From an uncultured Lentisphaeraceae bacterium (GTDB lineage Bacteria; Verrucomicrobiota; Kiritimatiellia; RFP12; DVOR01): a DNA stretch of 64,000 nt. A model generated the notes under the pieces. It ran no database searches. It was not told where the DNA came from and saw only the letters and a list, made by a program, of their open reading frames with translations. The stretch lies in NCBI GenBank assembly GCA_949282555.1, contig CASDPK010000008.1:3108-67107 (forward strand), given 5' to 3'. Of the stretch, positions 12,356-37,650 are shown piece after piece; within the stretch, counting starts at the first letter, position 1, and each line of letters begins with the position of its first letter. A program made the position numbers and the translations under genes.

Positions 12356-12366
12356 AGGAGGTCTTC

Positions 12367-16185: not shown

Positions 16186-17193
16186 TTACTTGTTCGCGGC
16201 TTCTTCGATGGCCACGGCCACGGCCACGGTCATGCCGACCATGGGGTTGTTGCCGGCGCCAATGAGGCCCATCATCTCGACGTGCGCAGGCACGGAAGAA
16301 GAACCGGCGAACTGAGCGTCGGAGTGCATGCGGCCCATGGTGTCGGTCATGCCATAGGAGGCGGGGCCGGCGGCCATGTTGTCGGGGTGGAGGGTACGGC
16401 CGGTGCCGCCACCGGAAGCGACGGAGAAGTACTTCTTGCCGGCGAGGACGCATTCCTTCTTGTAGGTACCGGCCACGGGGTGCTGGAAGCGCGTGGGGTT
16501 GGTGGAGTTTCCGGTGATGGAGACGTCCACGCCCTCCTGCCACATGATGGCGACGCCTTCGCGGACATCGTCAGCGCCGTAGCAGCGGACCTTTGCGCGG
16601 GGGCCATCGGAGAAGGCGATCTCGTTGGTGATGGTCAGCTTGCCCGTGAAGTAGTCGAACTCGGTTTCCACAAAGGTGAAGCCGTTGATGCGGCTGATGA
16701 TGTAGGCGGCATCCTTGCCCAGGCCGTTGAGGCACACGCGCAGAGGCTCCTTACGCACCTTGTTGGCCTTCATCGCAATGCCGATGGCGCCTTCGGCGGC
16801 GGCAAAGGATTCATGGCCGGCGAGGAAGCAGAAGCACTTGGTCTCTTCGCGCAGGAGCATGGCCCCCAGATTACCGTGACCAAGGCCGACCTTGCGGTCG
16901 TCGGCGACGGAGCCGGGGATGCAGAAGCTCTGGAGGCCTTCGCCGATGGCTTCGGCGGCATCGGCAGCCTTGGTGCAACCCTTCTTGAGGGCGATGGCCG
17001 CGCCGACGGTGTAGGCCCACTTCGCGTTCTCGAAGCAGATCTTCTGAATGTTCTCGACGATTTCGTAGGGGTCGAAGCCCTTGGCCTTGCAGATCTCGCG
17101 GCATTCCTCGACGGACTTGATACCATACTTATCGAGGACGGCCTGGATTTGCTTGATGCGGCGTTCGTAAGATTCAAACAGTGCCATGGTCAT
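16186..17193 (-). CDS. GGGtGRT family protein (uncharacterised, glycine-rich)
   Basis: Contains the family signature SGGGTGRTLHP. Start ATG 17193 was chosen from the context TAA-GGAGGAG-ATG directly after the upstream gene's stop. Confidence 0.8.
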   Translation of the reverse strand: MTMALFESYERRIKQIQAVLDKYGIKSVEECREICKAKGFDPYEIVENIQKICFENAKWAYTVGAAIALKKGCTKAADAAEAIGEGLQSFCIPGSVADDRKVGLGHGNLGAMLLREETKCFCFLAGHESFAAAEGAIGIAMKANKVRKEPLRVCLNGLGKDAAYIISRINGFTFVETEFDYFTGKLTITNEIAFSDGPRAKVRCYGADDVREGVAIMWQEGVDVSITGNSTNPTRFQHPVAGTYKKECVLAGKKYFSVASGGGTGRTLHPDNMAAGPASYGMTDTMGRMHSDAQFAGSSSVPAHVEMMGLIGAGNNPMVGMTVAVAVAIEEAANK

Positions 17194-17200
17194 CTCCTCC

Positions 17201-17914
17201 TTATTCGTGGCGGGGGTCAATGGACTTCACGGCACCCTGCTCCTCGGTGACGCGACCGTAGGTGCCGGTGCAGGCCTTGAGCGCCTCGTTGGCGTCCTGC
17301 CCCTTCTTCACGGCTTCCATGAACTTGCCCATGTGGACGAATTCGTAGCCGCAGACCTCGCTGTTCTTGTCGAGGTAGATCTTCTTGACGTAGCCCTCGG
17401 CCATTTCGAGGTAGCGCACGCCCTTCTGCTTGGTGGAGTACATCGTTCCCACCTGAGAGCGGAGGCCCTTGCCGAGGTCTTCAAGACCGGCGCCGATGGG
17501 CAAGCCGCCCTCGGAGAACGCGCTCTGGGTGCGCCCGTAGACGATCTGGAGATAAAGCTCGCGCATCGCGGTGTTGATGGCGTCACAGACGAGGTCGGTG
17601 TTCAACGCCTCCTGGATGGTCTTGCCGGGAAGGATCTCGGCGGCCATTGCGGCGGAGTGGGTCATGCCCGAGCAACCGATGGTTTCGACCAATGCTTCCT
17701 GGATGACGCCTTCCTTCACGTTGAGCGTCAGCTTGCAGGCGCCCTGCTGGGGCGCGCACCAGCCCACGCCGTGCGTCAGGCCGGAGATATCCTTGGTCTC
17801 ATAGACCTTGACCCATTTACCCTCTTCAGGAATGGGGGCCGGGGCGTGCTTGGCACCCTTGGCGACCGGGGTCATGCGCTCGACTTCGCTCGAGCAGGCG
17901 TAGGGACAACTCAT
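17201..17914 (-). CDS. IscU/NifU-like Fe-S scaffold domain protein with a C-terminal extra domain
   Basis: GVGWCAPQQGACKL...ETIGCSGMTHSAAMAAEILPGKTIQEALNTD...LVCDAI aligns with IscU GAPACGD...YGCGSAIASSS...KGKSLDEA..NTD...IHCS (three conserved Cys). Start 17914 has a GGAGG RBS. A 7-bp gap separates it from the GGGtGRT gene. Confidence 0.65.
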   Translation of the reverse strand: MSCPYACSSEVERMTPVAKGAKHAPAPIPEEGKWVKVYETKDISGLTHGVGWCAPQQGACKLTLNVKEGVIQEALVETIGCSGMTHSAAMAAEILPGKTIQEALNTDLVCDAINTAMRELYLQIVYGRTQSAFSEGGLPIGAGLEDLGKGLRSQVGTMYSTKQKGVRYLEMAEGYVKKIYLDKNSEVCGYEFVHMGKFMEAVKKGQDANEALKACTGTYGRVTEEQGAVKSIDPRHE

Positions 17915-17942
17915 GTTTCCTCCTTGGTTTGAGAGTGGGGTT

Positions 17943-17972
17943 ATTATACCGCCCCAACCCGTCCAACTGCAA
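17943..17972 (-). promoter_or_regulatory. Candidate sigma70 promoter TTGCAG-N18-TATAAT for the nifU-like/GGGtGRT operon
   Basis: Minus-strand -10 TATAAT at 17943-17948 and -35 TTGCAG at 17967-17972, about 25 nt upstream of the ATG. Confidence 0.4.
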
Positions 17973-18047
17973 GGGAAAACGGTGTGGAGACACGCTTGAG
18001 CGCCCCTAGGGGTGGGTTTGCGTTTCGCTTGTGGGGATACGAAAATG

Positions 18048-18076
18048 AAGAGCCGCCCTGCTCGGGCGGCTCTTTG
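18048..18076 (-). terminator. Rho-independent terminator downstream of tpiA
   Basis: Perfect 10-bp stem AGAGCCGCCC/GGGCGGCTCT, followed on the minus strand by TCATTTTCG. Confidence 0.5.
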
Positions 18077-18098
18077 AGTGGCGTCTGTTGCCTCAGAC

Positions 18099-18851
18099 TC
18101 ACTTCCCGGCGGCGACGATGGCCGCAAACGAGTCAGCCTTGAGGGCCGCTCCACCGATGAGGCCGCCGTCGATGTCGGGCTTGGCCATGAGTTCGCCCGC
18201 ATTTTCGGGCTTCATGGAGCCGCCATACTGAATGCGCACCTTGTCCGCCTGGTCGGGGTTCATCTTGGCGAGGGTGGCACGGATGAGGGCGTGCACTTCC
18301 TGAGCCTGGGTGGCGGTGGCCGTCTTGCCGGTTCCGATGGCCCAAACGGGCTCATAGGCGATGACGATCTTGGCGAAATCGGCCTGACATCCGGCGAGAT
18401 CTTGGGTGACCTGGCGGATGATGACCTCCTGCATCTTGCCCTCTTCGCGCTCTTCAAGCGTCTCACCCACGCACACGATCGGGGTAAGGCCGGCGGCAAG
18501 GGCGGCTTTGAGTTTGAGGTTCACGGTCTCGTCGGTCTCAGCGAAGTACTGACGGCGCTCGGAGTGGCCGAGAATGACGTACTGCACGCCGAGATCCTTG
18601 AGCATGGCGGCGGAGATTTCACCGGTGTAGGCACCGGATTCCTTCCAGTGCATATTCTGGGCGCCGAGGCCGATCTTGGCGCCTTCGAGGGCTTTAGCGG
18701 CGGCGGGGATGGCGGTGAAGGGGACGCAAACGACGACCTCCACGCCGCAATCGCCGTCATTGGTGGCCTTGCGGATGTCCTCGATGAGGGGCGTGGCCTC
18801 GGAGGGGGTCTTGTTCATCTTCCAGTTGCCGGCGACAATCTTGGTGCGCAT
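18099..18851 (-). CDS. tpiA: Triosephosphate isomerase
   Basis: [15 protein letters not shown], and the catalytic blocks [11 protein letters not shown] and GGSMKPENA. Confidence 0.9.
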
Positions 18852-18881
18852 GGCGGGAGGTTCCTTTCTTAGGGTTGGAGA

Positions 18882-19316
18882 TTACTCAACGGGACGCTTA
18901 CCGATGCAATCCTGGGGGCAGGTCTCACAGTTCCCGTCGCAGGACATTTCGGACTCATCCATCGCCAAATCATTAAAGCACTTTTCCGGGAATTCCTCAA
19001 CCGAAAGCGCATCGGCGACGGAGAAATCCTCAAAGTCGGTGCCCTCCGGAAAGGTGACAAGGTAGTAGGCTTCCGGGTCCAACCCCTCCACGGAGGGTTC
19101 CACGAATCCAGTCTCGGCATCCGTTGTCTCAACGAGGGAGAGCCCCAGTCGCTTGAAGGTATCTTCCGTGACGGCTTCGTCGTAGCACAACAGATCCATG
19201 AGATCGTAACCGGGGCAAGCGATTTGCGTTGCGGAGACGGGGCGGAGGTCAAACTCATCTTCTTCCGCCATGTCGTCCATGGCGGAAGGATCGGTGGGAT
19301 TTAGAGGCTCACTCAT
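18882..19316 (-). CDS. Small highly acidic protein with C-terminal CX3CX2CX3C motif, translationally coupled to the GspK-like gene
   Basis: ATGA overlap (start 19316-19314, upstream stop 19315-19313). Rich in D and E. C-terminus is CDGNCETCPQDC. No recognisable family. Confidence 0.5.
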   Translation of the reverse strand: MSEPLNPTDPSAMDDMAEEDEFDLRPVSATQIACPGYDLMDLLCYDEAVTEDTFKRLGLSLVETTDAETGFVEPSVEGLDPEAYYLVTFPEGTDFEDFSVADALSVEEFPEKCFNDLAMDESEMSCDGNCETCPQDCIGKRPVE

Positions 19317-22300
19317 GGCAACAGCTGGTAGTAGATGACGCGATCCGGAAGTTCGCCGTAGGCGTCGCGCCAAACAAGCGCCACGGCCCGTGCGGTGGAG
19401 AGCGGCTTGTGCTGGGAAAGATCCCGTCCGGAATTGTAGGCGATGGAGTCCGCACGCAAAATGTAGAGGAAGAGTTGCTGGCGGTCACCGAAGCATTCCT
19501 TGGCCGAGGCGACAAGGGTCGTGACGTCGTTCTGACCGAGAATCTTTCCGGTGCCTGCGGCGGCATTGTAAGCCTTGAGGCGATCGGCAAAGGAACCGGA
19601 CCCATCCGCGCCGGCAGGCTGGATGATGAAATCCTCCAACGTCTTAGGACGGGCGGGGCGGCCCTTGGTTCCCTTGTAGAGTTCCTGCTCACGCGTCCAG
19701 TCGCTGGCATTTGCGCCCACACCGCCGCCGGTCGTCGGCAGGGGGAAGAGATAATCACGGATAAAGTCATCGTACTTTGGCGCGGCAAGGCCGCCGGAGG
19801 GCACCTCAATATCCTTCAAGGTGTCCAAATCATCAAGCAGTTTGGGTGAGATCCGACCGGCGCTTTGGGCCGCACTGAGGCGATCATAGGTGACCTTGGC
19901 CGCCTGCTTGATGGTGGGGGCAATACCCAACAGTGCGAATTGTCGCAACCGCTGGCAGAGCACGTAATCATCCTGTCCCGCGAAGACATTGACGAGTGCA
20001 CGGTGCTCTTCCGGGAAGTTGTCGCCACTAAAGCTCTGGAACATGGAGCCAGTCTTGACATAGCGGTCGTAATCCAATGCGCCATCGTTGAAGTCCGCCA
20101 CAGGGAGGGTGCGGTAAAACGATTGCTTGGCCACTTTATCGTGATAATCGGCATAACTGTTTGTCAGATAGCCGCCCTTGTCACCCCAAACGGAGGACGC
20201 GACAGGGACCGGCAGGAAACACGCCTCGGCCGGCAGGAGCAATTGGTCCGTGTCGTTGTAGCCGTATCGGACATCCTCGGCCTTAAGACCCCAAGCGAAG
20301 GGCACAATGTCGGCGTGGGCTTCGGCATAACCCGTCGCGACATCCGAGGCGGAGGAAGAACCTCCGGTGATGTCGACGCCCTGCACGAAGGTCCAGTGCG
20401 GGGAAGAGAAGGAGGGCAACGGAGCAATGCCACTACCGCCGAAGTAGGCATTTCCGGAGTCCGACACGCCCAGCATGGGGGAGAGCCAGTTGTAACGCGG
20501 ATCGACGGCCGACCATGTTCCGGTGTCCGGAGAGAGGGTACTCCACGCGGGCGTGCTGGTTCCGGCAACGGCGAGTTTCCGACCACTGCCAAAGTCGAGC
20601 TCTGTGCTTGGCTCAATTTTGGGCGTCACCGTTACGGCATCGGAAAGTTTGGTTTTGCACTTGTAGCCGGTGATGGCACCGTTTTCACCTTCAATGGGCT
20701 CGGACTCCCACTCAAGTGCGAACTCCAGGACGACGGGCCGGGTGATGCGGAAGAACTGGCCGTCGAACTTCTCCATGGAGGCAGAGTTGAAGCGATCATT
20801 CAACGTCTTTGGATAATCCGTCCGCTGGCGGAGGATCTTGCCGGTGCCGACGGGGCAGATGTCCGCACTTCCACCGCCTCCTGTGGTCTTCGCACGGAAA
20901 AGGAAATCCACAGCGAAAGCCAAGCGCACCTTTGTGGCTTCGGGCTGAATGGGGGTGGCGCTTTCCTTGTTGGCGACGGGGAGATCTTTTCCGCTGAGTT
21001 CCAATTTGAGCTTCGCTCCGGACTTCAAGGGCACGGTGCCTTCAGAGAAGAGTGCACCATCGGCCGTGAGTCCGGTGTCGCCGCCGGAAAGGTCGGCAGA
21101 GGCACTTTCGGTCTTGAATTCCAACTGCTTGTTGTTTGAGACCACAACGGCAGAACCGAATGCCGCCGCAAACCCCTCTGCACCAATCGTGTAACTCTCC
21201 TCGGAGGATTCATAACCGGGGAAATAGGAACGGAGGGAAATCTCCGTTTCCGGAGCGGGGAGCTCAATGTCCAGCACAACGGAATCATCCAGCGTTGTCG
21301 GGAATTTGTCGGGAGAGGTGTAGCCAGTGGCAGGCATTCCCTCCGGCGACTTCCCTTCAAATCCTTTGAGTGCTTCGGTGAGGCCGGAAACAAAGTCGCT
21401 CCCGAGAGAAGTGTCACCATCAAAGGGGTAAGACACGTCGGAGATCATGGGGACGTTTTCGACGGTCGGTTGCGCCTGTGCGAGGAAGTCCGGGTCAGAG
21501 CCGCCGTCCGAATCCAACACCCCGGGCTGAGAATCCTTGTCAAGGTAATCGCGGAGCATTCGCAGGAAGACGGTCGGCGCATCCAACGCATTCCCATCGC
21601 TGATGGTCTTGCGGTAGAGCTCTTCGATTCGCCCGCCAACGGAGGATGCGGAGGAGGGATCGCCGATGTCTTCGGCTTTGACCTCGTCACAAGAGATGAG
21701 CGGAGCGCCATCGGACGTCGTGTTGTCTGCGGTGCCGCCGCTCTTCTCGTCCTTTCGCGTATGGCGGGGCCAGAAACTGTAAACCGAGAAGGGGGAGAAC
21801 CCTCCGATGCCCTCTTTGTAGATGGCGGATTCCCAAGAGTAGGGGTAGATGTCGCTGCCGTTGTCGGTCACCAACAGCGCATCGCTGCCACGTGCCGCAT
21901 ACCATGCCAAATCGGCGTTCGAGAGGAACGTTGGAAGATCCAGTTGGCTACTGGCGGGGTTCTGTTCGGAATCCAACAAATCATAGCGGTCGGAAGCTTG
22001 CCCGGAAGCGGAGGTGCCGGGCGCTTGGCCAAAACCGAATTCATTGCCGGTGAGGCCAATGCCGCGGTAGGGGGAGGCGGACGAAATGCCATTGATGTCC
22101 ACGGAGTCGGAGAGGTTCACCACCGCCCACGCCATGCGCCCGACAACGGCGGTGTTGATTTCCGTCTTACTGCCGCCAACGGTGCTTTCGACAGAGGGAA
22201 TCAGGGCATTGACGGGCTTCCAGCCCGCGGTCCAATCGACATAATATTTCCCGCTGTAACCTTTGTGGCTGATACCATCGTAGAAGGGCTCTTGGAGCTC

Positions 22301-22762
22301 CAACGTGGCATAGACGTTGTAGGCGATGGCGGGCGGGAGATGGCGCAACACCGTATCGTCAAGCAGATAGGCAATCGGCTCTTTGTCGGGCTCACGCTGA
22401 GTGGAGGCAGAGAACTCGCTGGACCCGGTGTTGCGGGACGTGATGAGGCGCCCGTAGTAGTCCAGATTAGGGTAACGGAAGGGGGCGAGCGCTTCAACCG
22501 TGCGGGTGTCGGGGTTGTCACGATCAAACGTCCCGGCCTCGTCTCTCTGGCTTTTGAGGGCGAAGTCCACGGTCGCACGCGCATCGGTGAAGGCCGAGGC
22601 GAGCAACTCTCGGGCAATGAGATTCCGGCGATAGGCGGCCGCGGCGGAGCGCTCCGTGCGCATGGAGATGGAGAAGGCCACGGCACTGATCATCAGAAAA
22701 CCGAGGAGCCCCAACACAATGAGCAGGGCTGAACCGCGCTTTGGATCAGAAGAATGGAACAT
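19313..22762 (-). CDS. Giant GspK-like minor pseudopilin (1149 aa) with a long Ser/Gly/Asp/Thr-rich extracellular region
   Basis: N-terminus KRGSALLIVLGLLGFLMISAVAF matches the GspK signature (R-G-x-ALL-x-VL). It is the last pilin-like gene of the pseudopilin operon. Confidence 0.6.
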   Translation of the reverse strand: MFHSSDPKRGSALLIVLGLLGFLMISAVAFSISMRTERSAAAAYRRNLIARELLASAFTDARATVDFALKSQRDEAGTFDRDNPDTRTVEALAPFRYPNLDYYGRLITSRNTGSSEFSASTQREPDKEPIAYLLDDTVLRHLPPAIAYNVYATLELQEPFYDGISHKGYSGKYYVDWTAGWKPVNALIPSVESTVGGSKTEINTAVVGRMAWAVVNLSDSVDINGISSASPYRGIGLTGNEFGFGQAPGTSASGQASDRYDLLDSEQNPASSQLDLPTFLSNADLAWYAARGSDALLVTDNGSDIYPYSWESAIYKEGIGGFSPFSVYSFWPRHTRKDEKSGGTADNTTSDGAPLISCDEVKAEDIGDPSSASSVGGRIEELYRKTISDGNALDAPTVFLRMLRDYLDKDSQPGVLDSDGGSDPDFLAQAQPTVENVPMISDVSYPFDGDTSLGSDFVSGLTEALKGFEGKSPEGMPATGYTSPDKFPTTLDDSVVLDIELPAPETEISLRSYFPGYESSEESYTIGAEGFAAAFGSAVVVSNNKQLEFKTESASADLSGGDTGLTADGALFSEGTVPLKSGAKLKLELSGKDLPVANKESATPIQPEATKVRLAFAVDFLFRAKTTGGGGSADICPVGTGKILRQRTDYPKTLNDRFNSASMEKFDGQFFRITRPVVLEFALEWESEPIEGENGAITGYKCKTKLSDAVTVTPKIEPSTELDFGSGRKLAVAGTSTPAWSTLSPDTGTWSAVDPRYNWLSPMLGVSDSGNAYFGGSGIAPLPSFSSPHWTFVQGVDITGGSSSASDVATGYAEAHADIVPFAWGLKAEDVRYGYNDTDQLLLPAEACFLPVPVASSVWGDKGGYLTNSYADYHDKVAKQSFYRTLPVADFNDGALDYDRYVKTGSMFQSFSGDNFPEEHRALVNVFAGQDDYVLCQRLRQFALLGIAPTIKQAAKVTYDRLSAAQSAGRISPKLLDDLDTLKDIEVPSGGLAAPKYDDFIRDYLFPLPTTGGGVGANASDWTREQELYKGTKGRPARPKTLEDFIIQPAGADGSGSFADRLKAYNAAAGTGKILGQNDVTTLVASAKECFGDRQQLFLYILRADSIAYNSGRDLSQHKPLSTARAVALVWRDAYGELPDRVIYYQLLP

Positions 22763-22783
22763 GATGAAATCTCCGAAGGCGCT

Positions 22784-23326
22784 TTAGGGATTGAGGATTC
22801 GGTGACGCCCTACCGCAGGTACGAGAATGGTATACTCGTCGTCGGCGTCCTGAGCGTCGGTGACCGCCTGTTTCACGCGGATGCGGTAAGGATTGCCCCA
22901 GGGGTCATAAAGTGTGTTGCCCCGCAAGGTGGGATGGTTGGCATTGAAATAGACGGTCTTGGCATCGTTTGCCGAGGGATCGGTAAGTTTGTTGACGATT
23001 GTTCCCTTGGCTTCGTTGATGCCTTCGGAAAGGCCCAAGTCTCCCATGGGATCCCCACCGTCGTCACCATCGCCATCGGAAGTGTCGAGCATTGTCAGGC
23101 AATAGAGACGGATGGCGTCGCCCAGCGCGCGTCCCTCAGCCGTGGCCTTGACGGTACGGGCGTTTTCTCTGGCGGCGTAGGTCGAGAAAGCAAAACTTGC
23201 AATGAGGATGCCGATGATAGCGATCACCACCAACAACTCAATCAACGTGAACCCGGCACGGGCCGCATGTGCGATCTCATCGTACGGACGTGCAGGGAAT
23301 GGATTGCCTAAATGGTTCAGGTTCAT
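22784..23326 (-). CDS. Type II secretion/type IV pilus-like pseudopilin, GspG-like (carries DPWGNPY)
   Basis: Leader ...ARAG|FTLIELLVVIAIIGIL (prepilin cleavage/methylation motif). C-terminal DPWGNPYRIR matches the GspG hallmark. Start 23326 has a GAGGA RBS. Confidence 0.7.
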   Translation of the reverse strand: MNLNHLGNPFPARPYDEIAHAARAGFTLIELLVVIAIIGILIASFAFSTYAARENARTVKATAEGRALGDAIRLYCLTMLDTSDGDGDDGGDPMGDLGLSEGINEAKGTIVNKLTDPSANDAKTVYFNANHPTLRGNTLYDPWGNPYRIRVKQAVTDAQDADDEYTILVPAVGRHRILNP

Positions 23327-23376
23327 GTCGCGGTCCTCAATCCAAAGGGGTTCGTGGGCATACGCTTGTGCCGTTG

Positions 23377-24174
23377 TCACTTGTCCTCACCTTCCGGCCA
23401 AGGGCGGATATCGTCCTCAGTGCCCCACTCACCATCGGGGCCGCAGGAGGCAACGGCGATCTCGTAATCGTTGACGGTGGGGGGCGTTTGAGGTCTGATT
23501 TTGATTTTGACGGCTGGGAGCGGATAGCTGGAGTTGAAGGCGGCGTCGTAATTGCTGCCGGAGACCGTCTCAAAGGTAATGCTACCGCCCTTGAGTGCGT
23601 ATGTCGTGGAGGTGCTCTTGCCGCCGTCGTAAGGTTCTTCCTTGCGTGTCACGGAGGAGCCACCCGAATACGTCACGCGGATCAGCTCACGGAGCGCTCC
23701 GTTGCCGGAGCCTTTGAGCTGTTCGTCCGGGTCCGTCGGTGGGCGAAGAATCCAAAAATCCAGCCCGCCGGACAGTTTCCCCTCCGCCGCGAGATCACTT
23801 TCGCTTGTGAGCGGGGTTTCCCCATCCATCATCACGAAGTTGTAAGGGTCCACCATCATGGCGAGATCGCGGCCAAGCGCGCCGACAACGGCGCGGGTGA
23901 CGGATTGCGCGTCGGCGCGCTTCAAGCCGAGCGACCATGCCAGCCCTGTCTGCTGGAAGATCCCCGCGACGATGAGCACAATGATGGAGAGGATGGTCAT
24001 CGCCACCAACACTTCAATGAGCGAGAACCCTTGGCGGAGCCTTTGGAGTCCGCGGTGTACGCGATTGAGCGGTGCACCGCATCCACGCTCGCGATACGGA
24101 GCCTCTCGCCCCGAGATACGGACTCCATCGGCCGAGGCCTCAGGCTGTCCTGTGCAAAGATGCGTCAAATCCAT
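23377..24174 (-). CDS. Prepilin-type N-terminal methylation domain protein (minor pseudopilin, GspJ-like position)
   Basis: RLRQG|FSLIEVLVAMTILSIIV motif. The annotated start gives an unusually long leader, so the true start may be a downstream non-ATG codon. Confidence 0.5.
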   Translation of the reverse strand: MDLTHLCTGQPEASADGVRISGREAPYRERGCGAPLNRVHRGLQRLRQGFSLIEVLVAMTILSIIVLIVAGIFQQTGLAWSLGLKRADAQSVTRAVVGALGRDLAMMVDPYNFVMMDGETPLTSESDLAAEGKLSGGLDFWILRPPTDPDEQLKGSGNGALRELIRVTYSGGSSVTRKEEPYDGGKSTSTTYALKGGSITFETVSGSNYDAAFNSSYPLPAVKIKIRPQTPPTVNDYEIAVASCGPDGEWGTEDDIRPWPEGEDK

Positions 24175-24184
24175 GGTCGTGCTC

Positions 24185-24718
24185 CTATTTGTTCGTGGAG
24201 GTGACGAACACGTTTACCACGTAGACCGGGGCGGTTTTCAGCGGGCGTGTGTTCTTGCTGCAATCCTCTCCGGTGGCTTGGACGCAGACTTGGACGGCTT
24301 CGGTCTTCCGGTCGCCGTTGTTCACGGTTTCGATGTTCCCGGAATTGGTGACATCGGGTTCTTTCCACCATGCACGGTACCACACGCCGGAATTTTCGGG
24401 ATCTTCGTGCGCTTCCACCCTGTCGTCGTCTTCCACGGGGTCTTCCACGCGAAAGCCGAAATCGCCCTCCAACTCATCCAGCAACGTGTCGGCATCCACC
24501 ACGCCGGGCTTTTCGGCGACGGTCCGGGCGGCCCCCATGAAGCGTTCACAGAAGGCTGCCACGCGCATTTCGTTGCGGGCGGCCAAGCTTTCACGCAATC
24601 CGAGCGGGAAAAGGCCGAGCAATGCCAACGCCCCGCCGGCCAAAACGAAGATGGCCATGTTGACCTCGATCAGGGAGAAGCCTGCACGCAGGGCCGTATG
24701 AAAGGAAATTCGTCGCAT
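24185..24718 (-). CDS. Prepilin-type N-terminal methylation domain protein (minor pseudopilin, GspI-like position)
   Basis: ALRAG|FSLIEVNMAIFVLAGGALALLGL. Confidence 0.5.
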   Translation of the reverse strand: MRRISFHTALRAGFSLIEVNMAIFVLAGGALALLGLFPLGLRESLAARNEMRVAAFCERFMGAARTVAEKPGVVDADTLLDELEGDFGFRVEDPVEDDDRVEAHEDPENSGVWYRAWWKEPDVTNSGNIETVNNGDRKTEAVQVCVQATGEDCSKNTRPLKTAPVYVVNVFVTSTNK

Positions 24719-24729
24719 GGGGGGCCTCC

Positions 24730-25641
24730 TTATTTGACGCTGACGGTACCCTGACCATCAACACTGACGGTGAAGGTGGCGTTCTTGGCATTCTTCGAGA
24801 TCGAGTGCGCCGCAGTGACCGAAGAGGCGGAGCCGGATTGGAGGCTCCCCTCGGGGCCAAAGATGAAGACCGCCCGATCGCCGCCCTCAAACGCATAAGC
24901 GTCGGGCAGAGAGAAGGTCGCCGTCACACGCACGGCCATCGGGAAGGCGCGGTCACTGGGAGCCGAGCCTTCCAGCGTCGCGACCCAAAAACCGGGGTTA
25001 CTCCGGGTGGCGCCTTCCTCGCCAATCTCAAGGTCTGCGTCTCCAGCGAGCATTTCCAACGACTTCTTCTGCCCTGCGACCCAGTAATCATAACTGAGAC
25101 GATTCTTGCGGTTGTTGTTGATTTGCTCGTTCAGATCGTCATTATCCTTTGTGGGATCATCCGCGATTTTGTCAATCCGCATAAAGGTGGACGCATCGGG
25201 GTCGAACAAGTTGATGGCTCGGGCGTTTTTGCGCAAGGCCGCGCCCAAGACTTCCCGCTGAAGGCCAAACGGAGCGAGCAAGGTTTTTCCCTCGTGCCAA
25301 ACGTTCCCGATGGATTGGAAGAGCGCGTAACGTCCCTGCTTTACTTTCTGCTTTTTACTGCCGACCACGATCTCGGTGTCGCTGTTCCAACAAACCACCA
25401 CGTGCGTTTTGCCGAGGATACAGGCCTGCTGTCGCGCCAAGAGGAGCGTGTCTCGGAGTTGGTTGCGGCTTTTGGTGACCCCTTCTTGGCGCATGGCACC
25501 GAAAAAGGAGGTGGCGGCCATGGTGATGAGCATCGCGGCGATGCCGATGACCACCATCAGTTCGATCAGTGTGAAACCCGAACGTCGGGAAAGTGTTCCT
25601 TCCCGTGCCGACGCGTCTGTCCCGAAAAACGTCATACCCAT
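24730..25641 (-). CDS. Prepilin-type N-terminal methylation domain protein (GspH-like pseudopilin)
   Basis: SRRSG|FTLIELMVVIGIAAMLITMA. Its size and position match GspH-type proteins. Confidence 0.55.
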   Translation of the reverse strand: MGMTFFGTDASAREGTLSRRSGFTLIELMVVIGIAAMLITMAATSFFGAMRQEGVTKSRNQLRDTLLLARQQACILGKTHVVVCWNSDTEIVVGSKKQKVKQGRYALFQSIGNVWHEGKTLLAPFGLQREVLGAALRKNARAINLFDPDASTFMRIDKIADDPTKDNDDLNEQINNNRKNRLSYDYWVAGQKKSLEMLAGDADLEIGEEGATRSNPGFWVATLEGSAPSDRAFPMAVRVTATFSLPDAYAFEGGDRAVFIFGPEGSLQSGSASSVTAAHSISKNAKNATFTVSVDGQGTVSVK

Positions 25642-25709
25642 TTGGAAATCCCTTTCGTCGTGCGAGGTTCACAGGGGGTCGCAGATCCGGCGCCCAATGT
25701 TCTGGCCGA

Positions 25710-26363
25710 TCAGTTCAATTGGATCACCTCTGCGAAGCTTCCTTCGTGAGGGGAGGTGACGGAGACATGATCCAAATCAAAATCATAGGTGATTTTGAGC
25801 GGGGCAAACGCTCTCGCTTGGCTGAGACGTTTGTACTTGCTGACGCCGGTCTTGTTCATTGTGACCAAGAACCCGATCATGTCACTGGCCGAAACGCCGC
25901 CGCCTGTGAGCGCATCGTCAAGTTTGGTGACGCGGCGTCCACCTTTGCAGACGTAGAACATTGAGGAATCCGTGATATAAGCGCGCTTTGCGTCATCACG
26001 CTTGCCGTTGGCATCGCGCCCAAGAAGCAACATCACGATTTCGGCATTGCCCTCCTTGGGGCGATTGTTGTTGACGGAGCCGAAGGTCGCGGAGCTAACG
26101 TCGGAGGAGTACGCCTCGGGGAGCGGATAGGCGCCATGCTCGTTCTTGTAGGCCATGATGGCACTTTCGACGATTTCCACGCAAGCGTTGCGCTTTGTCT
26201 TCTCGGCGCCTTTGATTACACGGGTCACGCCAATGACGCCCAATCCGACCAACGTGGCGAGGATGACCACCACCACCATCAGTTCAATCAATGTGAAGCC
26301 TGCACGGGAGCGTTGGGCGGCCTTGAGGGAGCGTAAGGAAGCAAGCGGAGTCGCGATATTCAT
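25710..26363 (-). CDS. Prepilin-type pseudopilin (GspG-like paralog)
   Basis: SRAG|FTLIELMVVVVILATLVGLGVIGV...AIMAYKNEHGAYP, a GspG-like N-terminal helix. Confidence 0.6.
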   Translation of the reverse strand: MNIATPLASLRSLKAAQRSRAGFTLIELMVVVVILATLVGLGVIGVTRVIKGAEKTKRNACVEIVESAIMAYKNEHGAYPLPEAYSSDVSSATFGSVNNNRPKEGNAEIVMLLLGRDANGKRDDAKRAYITDSSMFYVCKGGRRVTKLDDALTGGGVSASDMIGFLVTMNKTGVSKYKRLSQARAFAPLKITYDFDLDHVSVTSPHEGSFAEVIQLN

Positions 26364-26447
26364 GGATGAAATCCTTTTTGAGCGTTGAGGCTGGGAACGT
26401 GAGAAGAGAGGCGCGGCAATGGCAACCGCGCCATGTCTTGCACGCGT

Positions 26448-27089
26448 TTACCAACTTTGGGCGTAGACTTCGCCGTTCTTTTCACCGTCTTCCGCCCAGC
26501 ACCAAACCGCGGCGTCTCCGCGGACTTTGCCGCCGGGCACCGACAATTTGGCGGGAAGGCCATCGGAAGAATCGACGATGCCATCCTCGTTGACATCAAG
26601 GACAAATTGGTAAAGGTGATCGGTCACATCCGAACCGCTCCGGCCTTGCTTAAAGCGCTTGGCGCCGATGGGATCAAGCATGCCGTACTTCAATTCGGCC
26701 TCGTTTTCCCTGTTACGGCGGAGGCCGGCCTGCGTGGTGGAATCCGTCGCGTCGGTGTCGATATAGAGCACGTCCAAAAGGCCGGCCTTGCCCAACACCA
26801 AGCACATATCCGTGTCCATGGACTTCACGCCGGAGGAGGCGATTTTGTATTCTTCCGGCCAAAAGCCGACATCGCGGTGATAGTTGGTCCACGCCACGGC
26901 AATCTGCTTGCAGTCGTCGGCGGCATTTTTTCGACGCGCCGATTCCATGAACGCCGTGTAACCGCCGGCGGTGATGCCCCCCAAAATGCCGAGGATCACG
27001 ATGACGACGAGCAACTCAATGAGCGTGAAACCCGCACGGCGAGCGCCAAGGCCCTGAGTGCGGCGTCCGAAAGCATGCGTTCCGTTCAT
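26448..27089 (-). CDS. Prepilin-type pseudopilin (GspG-like paralog)
   Basis: ARRAG|FTLIELLVVIVILGILGGITAGGYTAF. Confidence 0.6.
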   Translation of the reverse strand: MNGTHAFGRRTQGLGARRAGFTLIELLVVIVILGILGGITAGGYTAFMESARRKNAADDCKQIAVAWTNYHRDVGFWPEEYKIASSGVKSMDTDMCLVLGKAGLLDVLYIDTDATDSTTQAGLRRNRENEAELKYGMLDPIGAKRFKQGRSGSDVTDHLYQFVLDVNEDGIVDSSDGLPAKLSVPGGKVRGDAAVWCWAEDGEKNGEVYAQSW

Positions 27090-27126
27090 AAGAATCTCCC
27101 TCTTCCTCTAGGCATGATGGCCGTAA

Positions 27127-27945
27127 TCAGTCCTCGTCGTCATCGGCGATGCCGCTGGCCGTGATGTCGTCGGCCGTCCCGAAGGCTCCATCCGGGCCGG
27201 CGGAGATGATTTCCCCGGCGCCGCCATCGTTCCGATACTTGAGGGCGTGCTCCCAGGCATCGCTCTTGGCACCTGCGGTATAACGTTGGGCGCCGCATTC
27301 GACACAGACGGTTTCTCCACTTTTCACCAAGCCATCTTTTTGGAGACGTCGCCAAGTACGGTAGATCTGCTGAAGATTGTTGTCTGCGGCTTCATTGGCG
27401 GCAGTGGCGCCCAAGGCGTCGCTCGCGTTTTTGAGCCCTCGGATTTCGGTGGCCCACGGCGTGTCTGCCGCGGGATTCCGATACATTTCTTTGTAGTGGC
27501 CCAGAAGCTCATCGGAAACGGCTTCTGAAATCACGGTTGCACGTGGCACAAAGTGTGAACACAGGCCGAACTGAATTTCGTCGGCATTGTTGCTGTTGGT
27601 GACGGCTTTGAATCCGCAGTATTTGCATCCGGGCGAGCCCGACTCGGAAACAAAGCGGAAGTCCAAAGGGGCGTACCCATTGCTATCCGTATTGGAAACG
27701 ACGGGATAATCGCCGTAGATGGCCTTGTATTCCTCGAGCAAGGTGGCGATGGCGTGGATTTGCGCGGTGGTTTCCGCGATCGCGGCTTTGTCACGCGCGG
27801 CACGGATCATTCGGAAGAGTCCCGCCGCCAAAATGCCGAGGATCACGATGACGACCAACAATTCAATGAGCGTAAACCCCGCGCGTTGCCGAATGCGCGT
27901 TTGCGCCGGCATGACGGCGCGGTTGCCAAACGATAAGTGGTTCAT
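27127..27945 (-). CDS. Prepilin-type pseudopilin (GspG-like paralog) with acidic C-terminal tail
   Basis: RQRAG|FTLIELLVVIVILGILAAGLF...EEYKAIYGDYP. Start 27945 has a GGAGGG RBS. The tail ends ...ASGIADDDED. Confidence 0.6.
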   Translation of the reverse strand: MNHLSFGNRAVMPAQTRIRQRAGFTLIELLVVIVILGILAAGLFRMIRAARDKAAIAETTAQIHAIATLLEEYKAIYGDYPVVSNTDSNGYAPLDFRFVSESGSPGCKYCGFKAVTNSNNADEIQFGLCSHFVPRATVISEAVSDELLGHYKEMYRNPAADTPWATEIRGLKNASDALGATAANEAADNNLQQIYRTWRRLQKDGLVKSGETVCVECGAQRYTAGAKSDAWEHALKYRNDGGAGEIISAGPDGAFGTADDITASGIADDDED

Positions 27946-28029
27946 GGAAAATCCCTCCGACAAAACGGAATGAAGCCTGATGGTGGGCGGGGCCGCACCA
28001 TGCCGTGCGAACCTCGCCCGCCGGGGCTG

Positions 28030-29322
28030 TTAGGCCCCGGTCTGCTGGCCGATGGTGCCGATGATGGAGATCAGCGGCATGAACATGGCGATGACGATGC
28101 CGCCGACCACGACGGCAAGGAAGATGATCATGATGGGCTCGATGATCGAGGTCATGGCGGCCACCGCGTTGTCCACTTCATCGTCGTAGGTGTTGGCCAC
28201 GCGGATGAGCATCTCGGGAAGGGCGCCGGTCTCTTCGCCGACTTCCACCATGGAAACGACCATGGGCGGGAAGACGCCGCTGGCGCCGAGGGGCGCCGTC
28301 ATGCCCTCGCCTTCCTTCACGCTGTCGTGGACGGATTGGAGCGCCTTGGAGATGACTTGGTTGCCGGTGGTCTCCTTGACGATGCTGAGCGCCTGGAGCA
28401 CCGGAACGCCGGAGCTGAGCAGGGTGCCAAGCGTACGGGTGAGACGCGCGACCACGGTCTTTTGGGTGAGTTGTCCGAAGACCGGCGCACGCAGGGCCAT
28501 GACGTCGTGGGCGTAGGAGCCGAAGGGCGTCTTGAAGAAGATCTTGGAGAGGACGACAAAACCGACGATGCCCGCGATGAGGAAGAGCCAGTAGTTTTGC
28601 ACCCACTCGGAGAGGCTGATGACGAACTGCGTAAGCGCGGGCATTCCTTCGCCGCCCATGAGGTCATCGAAGATCTGCTGGAACTTCGGAATGACCGCGA
28701 GCATCAGGAAGATCACAATGCCCAACGCGGCGCAGAGCACCACGATGGGGTAGGTCATCGCGCCCTTGACCTTGTTCTTGATCTTTTCGGCCTTTTCCAT
28801 GAACTCGGCCAAGCGGTTGAGCACCGTTTCCAACACACCGCCGGCCTCGCCGGCCTTGACCATGTTCACATAGAGGTGGTTGAAGATCTTGGGGTAGTTG
28901 CCCAACGATTCCGAGAAGGTGTTGCCGGTCTCCACGGTTTCAATCATTCCGTTGAGGGCGTCCTTGAGCGTTTCGTTGGCCGCCTGCCGGTGAAGCACAC
29001 GCAAACCGCGCAACAGGGGAAGGCCCGCATCCACCAGCGTCGCCAGCTGGCGCGTGAAGACCATCAAGTCTTTGGTCTTCACTTTGGCACGCAGGAACTT
29101 CGGGGTCTTGATTGTGATGTTTGCGGACTTTTTGGGCGCGGAGCCCTTGGCAGGCTTGGGGGCGGCCCCATCTGAAGCGTCTTCCTTGATCAGGCCGATG
29201 GCCTTGGGCGTGAGCTTCATGGCACGAATCTTTTCGATCGCGGCGCCTTGGGAATCGGCCTCGACTGTGCTAAGCACTTCCTTGCCTTGGGAATCCACTG
29301 CCTTGTACCTGAACTTGGCCAT
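28030..29322 (-). CDS. gspF: Type II secretion system / type IV pilus platform protein GspF/PilC family
   Basis: MAKFRYKAVDSQGKEV... N-terminus, two GspF-type repeats, three TM segments. Start 29322 was verified as a CAT reverse complement. Confidence 0.85.
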   Translation of the reverse strand: MAKFRYKAVDSQGKEVLSTVEADSQGAAIEKIRAMKLTPKAIGLIKEDASDGAAPKPAKGSAPKKSANITIKTPKFLRAKVKTKDLMVFTRQLATLVDAGLPLLRGLRVLHRQAANETLKDALNGMIETVETGNTFSESLGNYPKIFNHLYVNMVKAGEAGGVLETVLNRLAEFMEKAEKIKNKVKGAMTYPIVVLCAALGIVIFLMLAVIPKFQQIFDDLMGGEGMPALTQFVISLSEWVQNYWLFLIAGIVGFVVLSKIFFKTPFGSYAHDVMALRAPVFGQLTQKTVVARLTRTLGTLLSSGVPVLQALSIVKETTGNQVISKALQSVHDSVKEGEGMTAPLGASGVFPPMVVSMVEVGEETGALPEMLIRVANTYDDEVDNAVAAMTSIIEPIMIIFLAVVVGGIVIAMFMPLISIIGTIGQQTGA

Positions 29323-29383
29323 CGTCGTGTGTCCTTGTTTTGAGCTCAATGGGGCACGGCCCCAATTCCACATTGCTTTTTCA

Positions 29384-29412
29384 TTATAGCCGAAGCCTCC
29401 GACCTTCTGCAA
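29384..29412 (-). promoter_or_regulatory. Candidate sigma70 promoter TTGCAG-N17-TATAAT upstream of gspF
   Basis: Minus-strand -10 TATAAT at 29384-29389 and -35 TTGCAG at 29407-29412. These are the same hexamers as the promoter at 17943-17972. Confidence 0.4.
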
Positions 29413-29489
29413 CAGGAACGTGCCGCATGGGCTGATTGCTTTCGGGCGGTTCGCGTTTATGGGGGAAATGTGCTATAAGTTGCGGACCT

Positions 29490-31028
29490 ATGGAATGTGT
29501 TGCCCAGTTATTCCCGTTTTCGCCGACGGCCTCCGCGCTGGCGGCGGAGGTGGTTGCCGCGTGCCGTCGAGGACGGGTGCGCGTGGCGACGGCGGAGTCT
29601 TGCACGGGCGGCTTGGTGGGGGCGGTGCTGACGTCGGTGCCCGGGGCCAGCGCGGTTTTCAATGGGGGGACGGTCTGCTATCAGAACCGCCTGAAGGCGT
29701 CGTTCTTGGGGGTTCGTTGGGAAACCTTGGAGCGTGTGGGGGCGGTGAGTGCGGAGTGTGCGCGGCAGATGGCCGAGGGGGTCTGCCATGCGACGGATTC
29801 GGGCTTGGGCCTCGCGGTGACGGGGATTGCCGGGCCGGGGGGAGAGGGGCCGGAGAAGCCCGCGGGATTGGTCTATACGGCCGTGTCGCTCGCGGGGGCG
29901 ACGGTGGTGCGTGAGAACCGGTTCGCGGGGGATCGCGCGTCCGTGCGGGCTCAGAGTGTTGAGATGGTTTTGCAGATGGCACTGGAGTGCCTCAGAAAGA
30001 GAGAAGCGAAGATGGTCAACATCGACTGGTCGAAACTCGGTTTCGCGTATATGCCTACGCGGAGCCACATCCGTTACACTTGGAAAGATGGCGCATGGGA
30101 CAAGGGCGTACTTGTCAACGAGCCGACCATTACGATGTCCGTAGCCGCCGGATGCCTGCACTATGGCCAGGAGGCCTTTGAGGGCTTGAAGGTGTTCCGT
30201 CAGAAGGATGGCCGTGTGGTGGCGTTTCGCCCGGACATGAATGCTGAGCGTTTGCAGCGCACGGCCCGCAAAACGGTGATGCCGCCGGTGTCGACGGAGA
30301 TGTTCTTGGAGGCGCTGGAGCGCGTGGTGCGTGACAACATTGACTATGTGCCGCCCTATGGCACAGGATGCGCGATGTATGTGCGCCCGTTGCTCATCGG
30401 CACGGGGCCTCAGATCGGCGTGGCCCCCGCGCATGAATACACGTTCTTGATGATGGTCATGCCGATGGGTGACTATTACAAGGGCGGAATCAAGCCCGTG
30501 AAGGCCGTCATTTTCGACGAGTACGATCGCGCGGCCCCTCAGGGCATGGGCGACGTGAAGGTGGGTGGCAACTATGCCGCCAGCCTTTATGCCCACGAGC
30601 GCGCCCATGGGATGGGCTTCCCCGTGGAGCTGTATTTGGACGCGAAGACGCATACGAACGTGGAAGAGTTCGCGACCTCCAATTTCCTCGGTTTCAAGAA
30701 GGATGGCACCTTTGTGACCGTGCGTTCCGACTCGGTGTTGCCGTCCGTCACGAACCTTTCCCTGCAACAGTTGGCCACGGATATGGGCCACAAGGTGGAA
30801 GTGCGCACGGTGCCCTATGCGGAGTTGGCCGATTTCGCCGAGATCGGCGCCTGCGGCACGGCGGTGGTGGTGACTCCGGTCTGCGAGATCCACCGGGGCG
30901 AGGAGGTCATCAAAGTGGGTTCGCCGGATGTTTGCGGGCCGAACCTGCTGAAACTGCATGACGCCGTGCAGGACATTCAGTTCGGCCGCGTTCCCGATCC
31001 GTACGGTTGGTGTTACGCCATTCAGTGA
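29490..31028 (+). CDS. ilvE: In-frame fusion ORF: CinA C-terminal domain (PncC-like NMN deamidase) plus branched-chain amino acid aminotransferase (class IV, about 340 aa)
   Basis: N-terminal ATAESCTGGLVGAVLTSVPGASAVFNGGTVCYQN is CinA_C. From the internal Met (30012) MVNIDWSKLGFAYMP...FEGLKVFR... is a typical long-form BCAT. No stop codon lies between the two domains. Confidence 0.7.
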   Translation: MECVAQLFPFSPTASALAAEVVAACRRGRVRVATAESCTGGLVGAVLTSVPGASAVFNGGTVCYQNRLKASFLGVRWETLERVGAVSAECARQMAEGVCHATDSGLGLAVTGIAGPGGEGPEKPAGLVYTAVSLAGATVVRENRFAGDRASVRAQSVEMVLQMALECLRKREAKMVNIDWSKLGFAYMPTRSHIRYTWKDGAWDKGVLVNEPTITMSVAAGCLHYGQEAFEGLKVFRQKDGRVVAFRPDMNAERLQRTARKTVMPPVSTEMFLEALERVVRDNIDYVPPYGTGCAMYVRPLLIGTGPQIGVAPAHEYTFLMMVMPMGDYYKGGIKPVKAVIFDEYDRAAPQGMGDVKVGGNYAASLYAHERAHGMGFPVELYLDAKTHTNVEEFATSNFLGFKKDGTFVTVRSDSVLPSVTNLSLQQLATDMGHKVEVRTVPYAELADFAEIGACGTAVVVTPVCEIHRGEEVIKVGSPDVCGPNLLKLHDAVQDIQFGRVPDPYGWCYAIQ

Positions 31029-35762: not shown

Positions 35763-36095
35763 AAACGATCGCTGGACGTCTTCGAGTTCATGCTTGACAA
35801 ACCCGGTGTCCCAGTGTACCCTATGGAGCACATAGCTTGAGTTGAGGCGGAGTCCCAGTTGGGTCATCCCGCCACGCCTCAGGCGCATAACGATGCGTTA
35901 ACGCATACATTCGTTCGTAGGGAACTACCACTTCTGTTGCAAGGACGAAGGTATTGCGGAGGCGCGTTGGGGTTATTCCCTGGCGTGTTTCTCCCGTACT
36001 GTTTTCTTGCAAGGCTGTGGTAGGCCTCCTACGGAAACGTGAACGGACGGAGGCACGCCTTAATTGTGTCTCCGGTTGAAGAGGAGACACTTGCA

Positions 36096-37645: not shown

Positions 37646-37650
37646 CTGAG

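Follow-up and report, generated by a model that had tools for sequence, protein, structure and literature searches.

A gspF-headed operon with eight pilin-like genes, one of them for a giant GspK-type protein, in an uncultured Kiritimatiellae bacterium

What does a bacterium assemble from one secretion platform protein and eight pilin-like subunits when the usual motor, secretin and peptidase genes do not lie beside them? This question is raised by positions 18099 to 29412 of a 64-kb stretch of DNA from an uncultured Lentisphaeraceae bacterium (contig CASDPK010000008.1; the whole stretch that was analysed is called the window here), where a row of genes on the minus strand runs from gspF to tpiA. 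The locus is a genuine conserved operon, which encodes a platform protein and eight pilin-like subunits of a type II secretion/type IV pilus-like filament. Most of it is ordinary; the exception is K, a predicted filament-tip subunit of about 1,150 residues that lies outside any described family. The locus is best filed as a type IV filament module of the PVC (Planctomycetes-Verrucomicrobia-Chlamydiae)/Kiritimatiellae lineage, in which the pilins are supernumerary and the giant GspK-type protein belongs to an undescribed family.

The gene row and its conservation

The gene row was established from the list of open reading frames (ORFs) with their translations and from the gene calls on public contigs bearing an identical giant protein. 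Both bore out the minus-strand order given by the initial annotation: gspF, three prepilin-type genes (G1, G2 and G3), the genes in the H, I and J positions, G4, K, a gene for an acidic Cys-rich protein and tpiA. From gspF to tpiA the intergenic gaps are 84, 37, 84, 68, 11, 10, 50, 21, -4 and 30 bp. The description of the genes as overlapping or lying within a few bp of each other thus fits some junctions and fails at others, with gaps of up to 84 bp. Two more precise claims, a coupled acidic Cys protein and a distance of 30 bp to tpiA, were both exact, as the start of the acidic gene overlaps the K stop by 4 bp and tpiA begins exactly 30 bp beyond the acidic gene. The reading frames of the operon are intact (10/10), and its G+C content of 0.58-0.62 is the same as that of the flanks. 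When the window was scanned with a regular expression for prepilin signals of the form G↓F[TS]LIE (the arrow marks the cleavage site), seven were found, all of them inside the gene row.

The first gene, gspF (28030-29322, 430 aa, also called at 430 aa on the public contigs), codes for an inner-membrane platform protein (GspF/PilC) and supplies the polytopic GspF/PilC-family component expected of a type IV filament. Pfam T2SSF matched it in two stretches (220 bits, E = 8e-66), E. coli GspF matched it in tblastn with 30% identity (E = 1.8e-62), and the cytoplasmic domains that bind the ATPase are intact, with T2SSF_N and two T2SSF repeats. The GspF model TIGR02120 scored 401 bits (cut-off 424) and the Myxococcus-type PilC model 405 bits; since these scores are equally good, gspF does not discriminate between a type II secretion system (T2SS) and a type IV pilus (T4P). 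Together with N_methyl on the pilin-like genes and T2SSG on G1, the T2SSF match supports the initial call of a pseudopilin operon of the T2SS/T4P type with gspF at its head.

A scan of species-representative genomes yielded 35 related loci from metagenome-assembled genomes (MAGs) titled Kiritimatiellae, 'Candidatus Spyradenecus', Lentisphaeraceae and Verrucomicrobia. The complete order gspF-G1-G2-G3-H-I-J-G4-K-acidic-tpiA was found in about 20 species-level genomes and, because the same order recurs in so many of them, the row is far beyond chance. Identities in these relatives were 74-87% for gspF, 31-70% for the pilins and 29-51% for K over its full length. The initial annotation had proposed a PVC-type host and a layout typical of that lineage; the host is indeed a gut member of the Kiritimatiellae, similar to 'Ca. 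Spyradenecus', and the layout is kept in the related Kiritimatiellae, Lentisphaerae and Verrucomicrobia MAG loci that were fetched. The conservation and the matching G+C content indicate that the module is vertically inherited and self-contained, neither an island nor a remnant. In cassettes further removed (L031-L040), pilin-like genes whose N-termini are of the I, G4 and K types still follow each other in this order, although not all elements were matched in all loci; these cassettes are without the acidic gene and tpiA and may be without gspF. The records of two cassettes, L007 and L031, are titled Agathobacter rectalis and Christensenella sp., most likely through contamination in MAG binning.

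Upstream of gspF the genes vary between genomes, and none is a secretion component. GspE and GspD were considered for this position in the relatives and rejected, as the genes there code for a DndB-like protein, RecD2, a Na/H exchanger, TrmE, an SSF symporter, a PA14/F5_F8 protein, glutamate dehydrogenase and transketolase.

The signals for transcription were less clear than initially proposed. A sigma-70 promoter, TTGCAG-N17-TATAAT at 29384-29412, had been suggested for the whole row. Read directly from the sequence, the promoter-like site upstream of gspF on the minus strand is TTGCAG-N18-TATAAT at 29383-29412; its -35 element matches the consensus at 3/6 positions only, for which reason the site was missing from the scanner output. 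Promoter-like sites were not enriched in the region (3 found versus 3.4 expected from shuffles), and the promoter was dropped as unsupported by the scan. An AAGGA ribosome-binding site precedes the gspF ATG at 29322. Within the row, the 84-bp spacer between G2 and G3 (folding energy -26.7 kcal/mol, z = -2.8) holds a GC-rich hairpin at 26410-26432 on the minus strand, a terminator-like match with 8 pairs (7/8 G-C). This hairpin is a possible attenuator or RNA-stability element, and it could attenuate read-through, leaving G1 and G2 in excess over the minor pilins. At the other end of the row, an intrinsic-terminator-like hairpin (18048-18074, minus strand; 11 pairs, 8/11 G-C) lies 24 bp past the tpiA stop. 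It was the strongest minus-strand hairpin found in the scan of 17000-30000; its tail is interrupted, CATTTTCGTA, and was accepted by the scanner (at least 5 T in an 8-base window). Probably, tpiA is co-transcribed with the operon or at minimum uses the same terminator.

The pilin-like subunits and the giant K protein

Seven genes carry the class III signal peptide of type IV filament subunits (G↓F/M-x-x-x-E followed by a hydrophobic helix). N_methyl and TIGR02532 scored above cut-off for six of them, the gene in the I position falling just below. As the pilin genes are mutually alike over the first 60-90 residues only, the term 'paralogs' holds for the pilin helix only: the GspG-like paralogs of the initial annotation share this N-terminal part, the remainder of each protein is unlike the others, and T2SSG was found on G1 alone. 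The hidden Markov models that had been put forward to check the locus gave a similarly divided result. T2SSF, N_methyl (6/7) and T2SSG (G1 only) matched; the T2SS H, I, J and K models had no Pfam match across the operon proteins; and DUF1559 (PF07596) remained below threshold, its best score being that of G2 (14.2 versus a gathering score of 23.3 bits). The NCBIfam equivalogs for GspG and GspH matched just the first 60-80 residues of G1-G4 and of the H-position protein.

G1 (27127-27945, 272 aa), the first pilin gene after gspF, codes for a GspG-type pseudopilin and is the candidate major subunit. In addition to N_methyl (36.7 bits), Pfam T2SSG matched its residues 226-266 with 32.5 bits (cut-off 21), and its C-terminus SAGPDGAFGTADDIT matches SAGPDGEMGTEDDIT of E. 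coli GspG. The whole GspG C-terminal motif is present, DAWEHALKY...SAGPDGAFGTADDIT in G1 versus ADPWGNDY...SAGPDGEMGTEDDIT in E. coli K-12, and the tail SAGPDGxxGTxDDIT common to both proteins marks G1 as a pseudopilin of the GspG type. The NCBIfam GspG equivalog reached 54.6 bits versus a cut-off of 88.85 because of an insert of about 130 aa. This insert contains two CxxC pairs (GCKYCG ... CVECG), which are kept in many relatives, one or both being lost in several, and which resemble a zinc ribbon or a double disulfide.

The two following genes are GspG-like to a lesser extent. G2 (26448-27089, 213 aa), with N_methyl at 33.2 bits and 43-70% identity in the related loci, resembles GspG over its N-terminal ~60 residues only (TIGR01710, 43.6 bits, residues 20-81, below cut-off). 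G3 (25710-26363, 217 aa), whose mature form is basic (pI 8.5), matched N_methyl with 31.7 bits and TIGR01710 with 36.3 bits, the latter at the N-terminus only.

The names H, I and J are positional only, because the profiles built from relatives reach just pilin N-terminal helices. The H-position protein (24730-25641, 303 aa; N_methyl 30.6 bits) matched the GspH model TIGR01708 at residues 21-98 with 42.9 bits (cut-off 80). The I-position protein (24185-24718, 177 aa) has a RAG↓FSLIEV signal, an N_methyl score below threshold (15.3 versus 21.2 bits) and weak N-terminal matches to PilV and Verru_Chthon B; its N-terminus is kept even in the distant cassettes L031-L038. The J-position protein (23377-24174, 265 aa as called; N_methyl 34.4 bits) matched the GspJ model TIGR01711 at E = 0.036 only, and it ends in a GspG-type GPDGxWGTEDDI tail, so that it has the GPDGEWGTEDDI half of the GspG motif alone. 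This tail showed a weak match to the GspG chains 3g20 and 29jd, in addition to a match by eye to E. coli GspG. The GspI and GspJ models gave E values of 0.006-0.1 over the N-terminal helix only, and no H, I or J family model identified these proteins. Against PDB sequences, the H-, I- and J-position family profiles returned pilin N-terminal helices only, apart from the weak GspG-tail match of J, and the I profile had no match at all.

The other half of the GspG motif is found in G4 (22784-23326, 180 aa; N_methyl 33.3 bits), a short prepilin-type protein whose DPWGNPY resembles ADPWGNDY of E. coli GspG. G4 always lies directly upstream of K, and DPWG[NRKT]PY is kept across the aligned related loci, the distant L031-L033 included.

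K (19313-22762, 1149 aa) is a giant GspK/PilK-type protein with a large inserted region. Its N-terminus, KRG↓SALLIVLGLL, has Ile at +5 and thereby the hydrophobic pilin start without Glu+5 by which GspK/PilK proteins are recognised; KRG↓SALLIVL compares with QRG↓VALLIVL of E. coli GspK, and identity to GspK residues 2-34 is 36%. K is the last gene of the minor-pilin row, after I, J and G4, both here and in those related loci whose sequence includes the upstream genes. In an alignment of 29 sequences the stretch from G10 to F30 is invariant, many further columns are invariant in the family, and a C-terminal block, RQQLFLYILRAD...ARAVALVWRDAYGELPDRVIY, is strongly conserved.

K was found identical on 11 metagenome contigs and has full-length homologues of 34-95% identity, the few with a source name being Kiritimatiellae. 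In an exhaustive profile search the family comprised 1093 clusters at E <= 1e-3 and 651 at E <= 1e-10, counted at 50% identity; most are 900-1200 aa long and were matched in several separate stretches. The 111 remote members matched at profile positions 1-80 (less often to ~430) and 1060-1125, positions 440-1040 being essentially unmatched. The variable insert, taken as the part unmatched in remote relatives, thus comprises about 600 residues within the ~900 residues that separate two groups of strands. No GspK model of Pfam or NCBIfam matched K at E <= 0.1, the family profile had no match among PDB sequences, and the family is without a curated model in Pfam or NCBIfam, eight remote members being likewise without an NCBIfam match. 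TIGR02600 (Verru_Chthon_A) was considered for K and rejected, as there was a single match of E = 0.05 over 47 residues and none for the eight remote members.

The AlphaFold2 model of K (pLDDT 70, pTM 0.69) shows a helix of 60 residues at the N-terminus, strands at 182-216, a beta-rich core predicted with confidence at about 440-760, a region of helices and terminal strands at 1096-1132; Foldseek found no PDB structure similar to it at E <= 1e-3. According to a 2026 study, Glu+5 is invariably missing from proteins of the PilK family, which are apical; in GspK and CpaL the last strand of the pilin sheet is provided in cis; and large inserts between the pilin module and this strand are tolerated (PMC13533445). 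In the light of these three features, K is most economically read as a tip pilin of the GspK/CpaL type that carries a variable insert, a reading to which the predicted fold lends weak support. As judged from the predicted secondary structure, the pilin sheet of K would be closed in cis by its C-terminal strands. This giant tip family with its variable insert is the part of the locus worth following.

Partner genes and the proposed function of the filament

The initial annotation had pointed out that gspC, gspD, gspE, gspL and gspM are absent, and for the 64-kb window this was confirmed by Pfam, by motif and by tblastn. No T2SSE or Secretin domain was found by Pfam on the other large ORFs, whose functions are housekeeping or otherwise unrelated; among them are a CinA-aminotransferase, ilvB/ilvN, aroE, folB, DNA polymerase III alpha, a topoisomerase, GH101, a Ser/Thr kinase, Sir2 and proteins with ankyrin and Sel1 repeats. 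The Walker A motif of the GspE type, GPTGSGK[ST]T, was absent from the window and 40 related loci, and over the same 740 kb GspC, D, E, L and M of E. coli K-12 had no tblastn match at E <= 1e-3, while GspF, GspG (N- and C-terminal parts) and GspO did match. Since GspC, L and M diverge fast, weak homologues of these may have escaped tblastn. In the related genome loci fetched, neither GspE nor GspD lies within ~10 kb of the cassette; gspD or gspE directly flanking the operon, which would have pointed to an ordinary T2SS, was thus not encountered. By local gene content, the ATPase GspE, the GspD secretin and GspC/L/M of a canonical T2SS are missing from the window and the related loci. PilY1, PilT and PilMNOPQ were not noticed in the general Pfam scans of the window ORFs, which were not a dedicated search for them.

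The A24 prepilin peptidase expected of a type IV filament is encoded outside the operon, on the plus strand at 34256-35314 (352 aa, PilD/GspO family; A24_N_bact 115.5 bits, Peptidase_A24 46 bits), and E. coli GspO matches 34640-35116 with E = 2.7e-8. Its ATG overlaps the aroE stop and its own stop overlaps the folB start, within the biosynthetic row ilvB-ilvN-aroE-pilD-folB. The peptidase had initially been placed about 5 kb away among amino-acid biosynthesis genes, and it does lie there, after ilvB, ilvN and aroE and before folB. Such a row is an unusual home for a pilus gene. T4aP (type IVa pilus) and ComM systems are normally multi-locus, with peptidases often unlinked, and because type IV filament systems are often encoded at split loci the missing neighbours are no anomaly (PMC6668835). 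This split organisation would not surprise a specialist.

On balance we favour, with moderate confidence, the reading that the locus is the platform-plus-filament module of a T2SS-type type IV filament in gut Kiritimatiellae. PilD would cleave the leaders of the seven G↓F[TS]LIE proteins and, probably, the KRG↓S leader of K. Lacking Glu+5, K would be the first and apical subunit, with its N-terminal pilin module and C-terminal strands closing in cis and its variable, beta-sandwich-rich middle sitting on the filament tip. Beneath K, an initiation complex may form from the I-, J-, G4- and H-position pilins. A GspE/PilB-type ATPase, presumably encoded at another locus, would then polymerise G1, possibly with G2 and G3, on the GspF platform, and the filament would act through a secretin whose gene likewise lies at another locus. 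Its output would most likely be exoenzyme secretion by a piston-like pseudopilus in an organism that lives by glycan degradation; a T2SS has been reported in the cultured Kiritimatiella glycovorans (PMC5148204).

Several points weigh against this reading. The ATPase, the secretin and GspC/L/M were not seen in 740 kb, and their existence in this genome is assumed. No H, I, J or K family model reached threshold, and gspF resembles PilC in score as much as GspF. Eight pilin-like genes and a tip protein of 1149 aa exceed a canonical T2SS, and a tip with a large beta-sandwich would serve an adhesive pilus just as well. The promoter is unsupported.

The main rival is a surface T4P-like pilus instead of a periplasmic piston, with K as a tip adhesin that binds host or dietary glycans through its beta-sandwich middle and G1-G3 as a long fibre, heteropolymeric perhaps, by which the cell attaches to mucus or particles. 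We consider such a pilus possible, though on the unlikely side. It would account for the three G-like genes in place of one, for the score of gspF on PilC and for the fact that the middle of K is the variable part of the family, as would be expected for a ligand-binding module; modular pilins and CpaL-type tips with adhesin inserts are known (PMC8179133, PMC13533445), and a GH101 endo-alpha-N-acetylgalactosaminidase in the window suggests a mucin-associated lifestyle. However, the gene order and the C-terminal motif specific to GspG speak for a T2SS origin, the sandwich matches of K are generic and of high root mean square deviation, and no binding site was identified in K. PilY1, PilT and PilMNOPQ were likewise unseen in the window and related loci, where only the ATPase and the secretin were searched for directly. 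A bolder version, which we regard as doubtful, holds that the K family represents undescribed PVC tip pilins with a GspK-type module and a swappable, glycan-binding beta-sandwich cargo in cis. These would have turned a T2SS-derived filament into a long pilus for adhesion or 'fishing', by which mucin or polysaccharide from the diet is caught, with the acidic Cys4 protein, taken as cytoplasmic, as a dedicated partner or regulator.

The remaining explanations appear far less probable. The finding that no GspE or GspD lies within ~10 kb in the related loci fetched would also fit a PVC-specific machine without a dedicated ATPase or secretin, in which GspF and pilins alone or with unrelated partners build a new envelope structure. 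PVC envelopes are unusual, and in Planctopirus an essential-gene study describes a T2SS-annotated operon with six lineage-specific unknown genes (PMC10632474). A gene missing from a flank may still lie elsewhere in the genome, though, and the ATPase-binding domains of GspF are intact. As far as is known, no type IV filament has been characterised that does without an ATPase of the PilB/GspE family docking on its platform protein, and we hold this machine to be highly improbable. We give equally little credence to a DNA-uptake (competence) pseudopilus of the Com/T4aP type. The ComGC, ComGD, ComGE and ComGF models do match the N-termini of several pilins, but weakly, far below cut-off and within the shared N-terminal helix; ComEA, ComEC and DprA were not noticed in the general Pfam scans of the window; and although a PilK-type protein that completes the pilin sheet in cis is found in Com systems too (PMC13533445), G1 with its GspG-type C-terminus favours the T2SS lineage. 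Least probable of all is a decaying or orphan T2SS remnant without present function. The partner genes are missing from the neighbourhood, as they would be in a remnant, but the ten frames are intact, order and sequence are kept in about 20 species-level genomes, gspF retains 74-87% identity and K, over its full length, 29-51%, and many columns of K are invariant.

Among the glycan degraders of gut and sediment, Kiritimatiellae and related PVC bacteria are abundant, yet their enzyme export and substrate attachment are almost unstudied. For the filament of this lineage the operon provides a parts list, made up of one clear GspG, six more pilin-like subunits with no assigned fold and a family of 1,100-residue tip proteins not described in any database. 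If the tip insert binds glycans or gates secretion, the recently proposed cis terminal-strand rule would extend to a new phylum and to far larger cargo; if it does neither, the locus would be the usual T2SS pseudopilus module with its other parts elsewhere.

The acidic protein, neighbouring genes and distant cassettes

The gene next to K, at 18882-19316 on the minus strand, codes for an acidic Cys-rich protein of 144 aa (pI 4.05) with an invariant C-terminal CDGxCxxCxQxCxGKxP motif. By eye, its translation has no signal peptide or hydrophobic N-terminal segment, no predictor having been run. The structural model shows a confident small alpha/beta core, for which no structural neighbour was found. 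Several of the homologues in L012-L014, L024 and L029 have an extra N-terminal Cys/His-rich stretch (CDCGEADCDCG, CGCGHDHDDTCDCGC), and they keep the invariant C-terminal Cx3Cx2Cx3C tail; the two features together suggest metal binding. The gene is confined to the core clade, always between K and tpiA and at a varying distance from K, and is absent from the more distant cassettes. While its coupling to K through the 4-bp overlap stands, its membership in the system is doubtful on account of this absence and of the variable spacing. It could go with the pilus genes and equally with the downstream tpiA, NifU-like and GGGtGRT genes.

Triose-phosphate isomerase, encoded by tpiA (18099-18851, minus strand, 250 aa), is the last gene before the terminator-like hairpin. 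The translation is that of a typical TIM, Pfam TIM was found on the public contigs, and in the related loci the gene has 77-91% identity and always follows the acidic gene. Downstream of it lie genes for a NifU_N-like protein and a GGGtGRT protein.

In three distant cassettes a further prepilin-type gene was observed after K, in the regions 13295-16209 of L038, 13065-17629 of L039 and 13313-14302 of L034, with weak sub-threshold DUF1559 matches in L034 and L038 and N_methyl only in L039. In L038 it is followed directly by genes for a LuxR-type response regulator and a HisKA_3 histidine kinase; in L039 a BspA-type leucine-rich-repeat protein and then a HisKA_3 kinase follow, and no response regulator was identified there. 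These two-component genes may be a dedicated regulator of the cassette, without counterpart in the window's clade. Two other assignments were rejected: the genes downstream of K in distant cassettes had been considered as GspL/M and are really this prepilin-like gene and the LuxR/HisKA_3 two-component genes, and L034 had been considered as a complete T2SS, where the upstream ORFs code for a Na/H exchanger and TrmE and the cassette is without gspF.

Elsewhere in the window, a single ORF divergent from gspF (29436-31028, plus strand) encodes a fusion of CinA (competence-damage) with a class IV aminotransferase, called as one 512-aa gene on public contigs. A 935-aa protein at 4784-7591 on the plus strand has a glycoside hydrolase family 101 (GH101) endo-alpha-N-acetylgalactosaminidase domain (232 bits), of a type that frees core-1 O-glycans from mucins and fits a mucus-associated gut lifestyle. 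At 9282-13125 on the plus strand lie a 787-aa eukaryote-type Ser/Thr protein kinase, a 237-aa ORF without Pfam match and a Sir2-family deacetylase, a trio that flanks the operon on public contig L001 too. A block at 36000-44000 has a lower G+C content (0.51 versus ~0.61 in its flanks) and holds two ORFs without Pfam match (36039-37645) and genes for a protein of 832 aa with ankyrin repeats (37651-40149), for one of 582 aa with nine Sel1 repeats (40309-42057) and for a rhomboid protease (42686-43699); the eukaryote-like repeat proteins of this compositionally distinct block may have been acquired horizontally.

Comparison with known systems

Among PVC bacteria, expansions of DUF1559/PulG-like proteins and T2SS-like operons (Planctopirus Plim_0410-0401 and Verruconatronum) also combine T2SS genes with lineage-specific unknown genes and many PulG-like pseudopilins (PMC10632474, PMC13274419). 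They differ in scale, with dozens of pseudopilins versus seven prepilin genes in 64 kb here. A second verrucomicrobial arrangement, the Verru_Chthon cassette A-D (TIGR02600, TIGR02598, TIGR02599 and TIGR02596), encodes three prepilin-type proteins and one of about 1,300 aa. The H-, I- and J-position proteins and K showed weak matches, each the best of its class and in a corresponding position, to D, B, C and A, respectively. All were limited to the N-terminus and failed the cut-offs: A, 11.4 versus 332; B, 20.8 versus 51.4; C, 29.2 versus 256.5; and D, 31.6 versus 70 bits. As eight remote K members are without an NCBIfam match, these members provide no bridge from K to Verru_Chthon either.

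In its general plan K resembles the modular tip pilins CpaL of the Caulobacter Tad pilus and the ComZ-type protein of Thermus, in which a pilin N-terminal module and a conserved extreme C-terminal strand, suggested to close the pilin sheet in cis, enclose a large insert (PMC13533445). The conservation pattern, with conserved ends and a variable middle, is the same. In contrast, no sequence similarity to these tips was detected, the insert of K is about twice as long, and K is found in a T2SS-type operon whereas CpaL and the ComZ-type tips belong to Tad and competence T4aP loci.

The canonical Gsp system differs from the locus by having gspC, gspD and gspE upstream and gspL and gspM downstream, all of which the window lacks around its unlinked-peptidase operon, and by five pilin-like genes versus eight here. 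The globular domains of the H, I, J and K proteins are not detectably homologous by sequence to those of the GspI-J-K tip (PDB 3CI0) and GspH, and a GspK of ~325 aa with an alpha-domain of ~180 residues stands against a K of 1149 aa with a beta-sandwich-rich insert. Nevertheless, the core order F-G-H-I-J-K of the E. coli K-12 gspC-O operon is the same in the window, the GspF domains and the peptidase-dependent signals are common to both, G1 has the GspG C-terminal motif DPWG...SxGPDGxxGTxDDI, and K has the GspK N-terminus without Glu+5.

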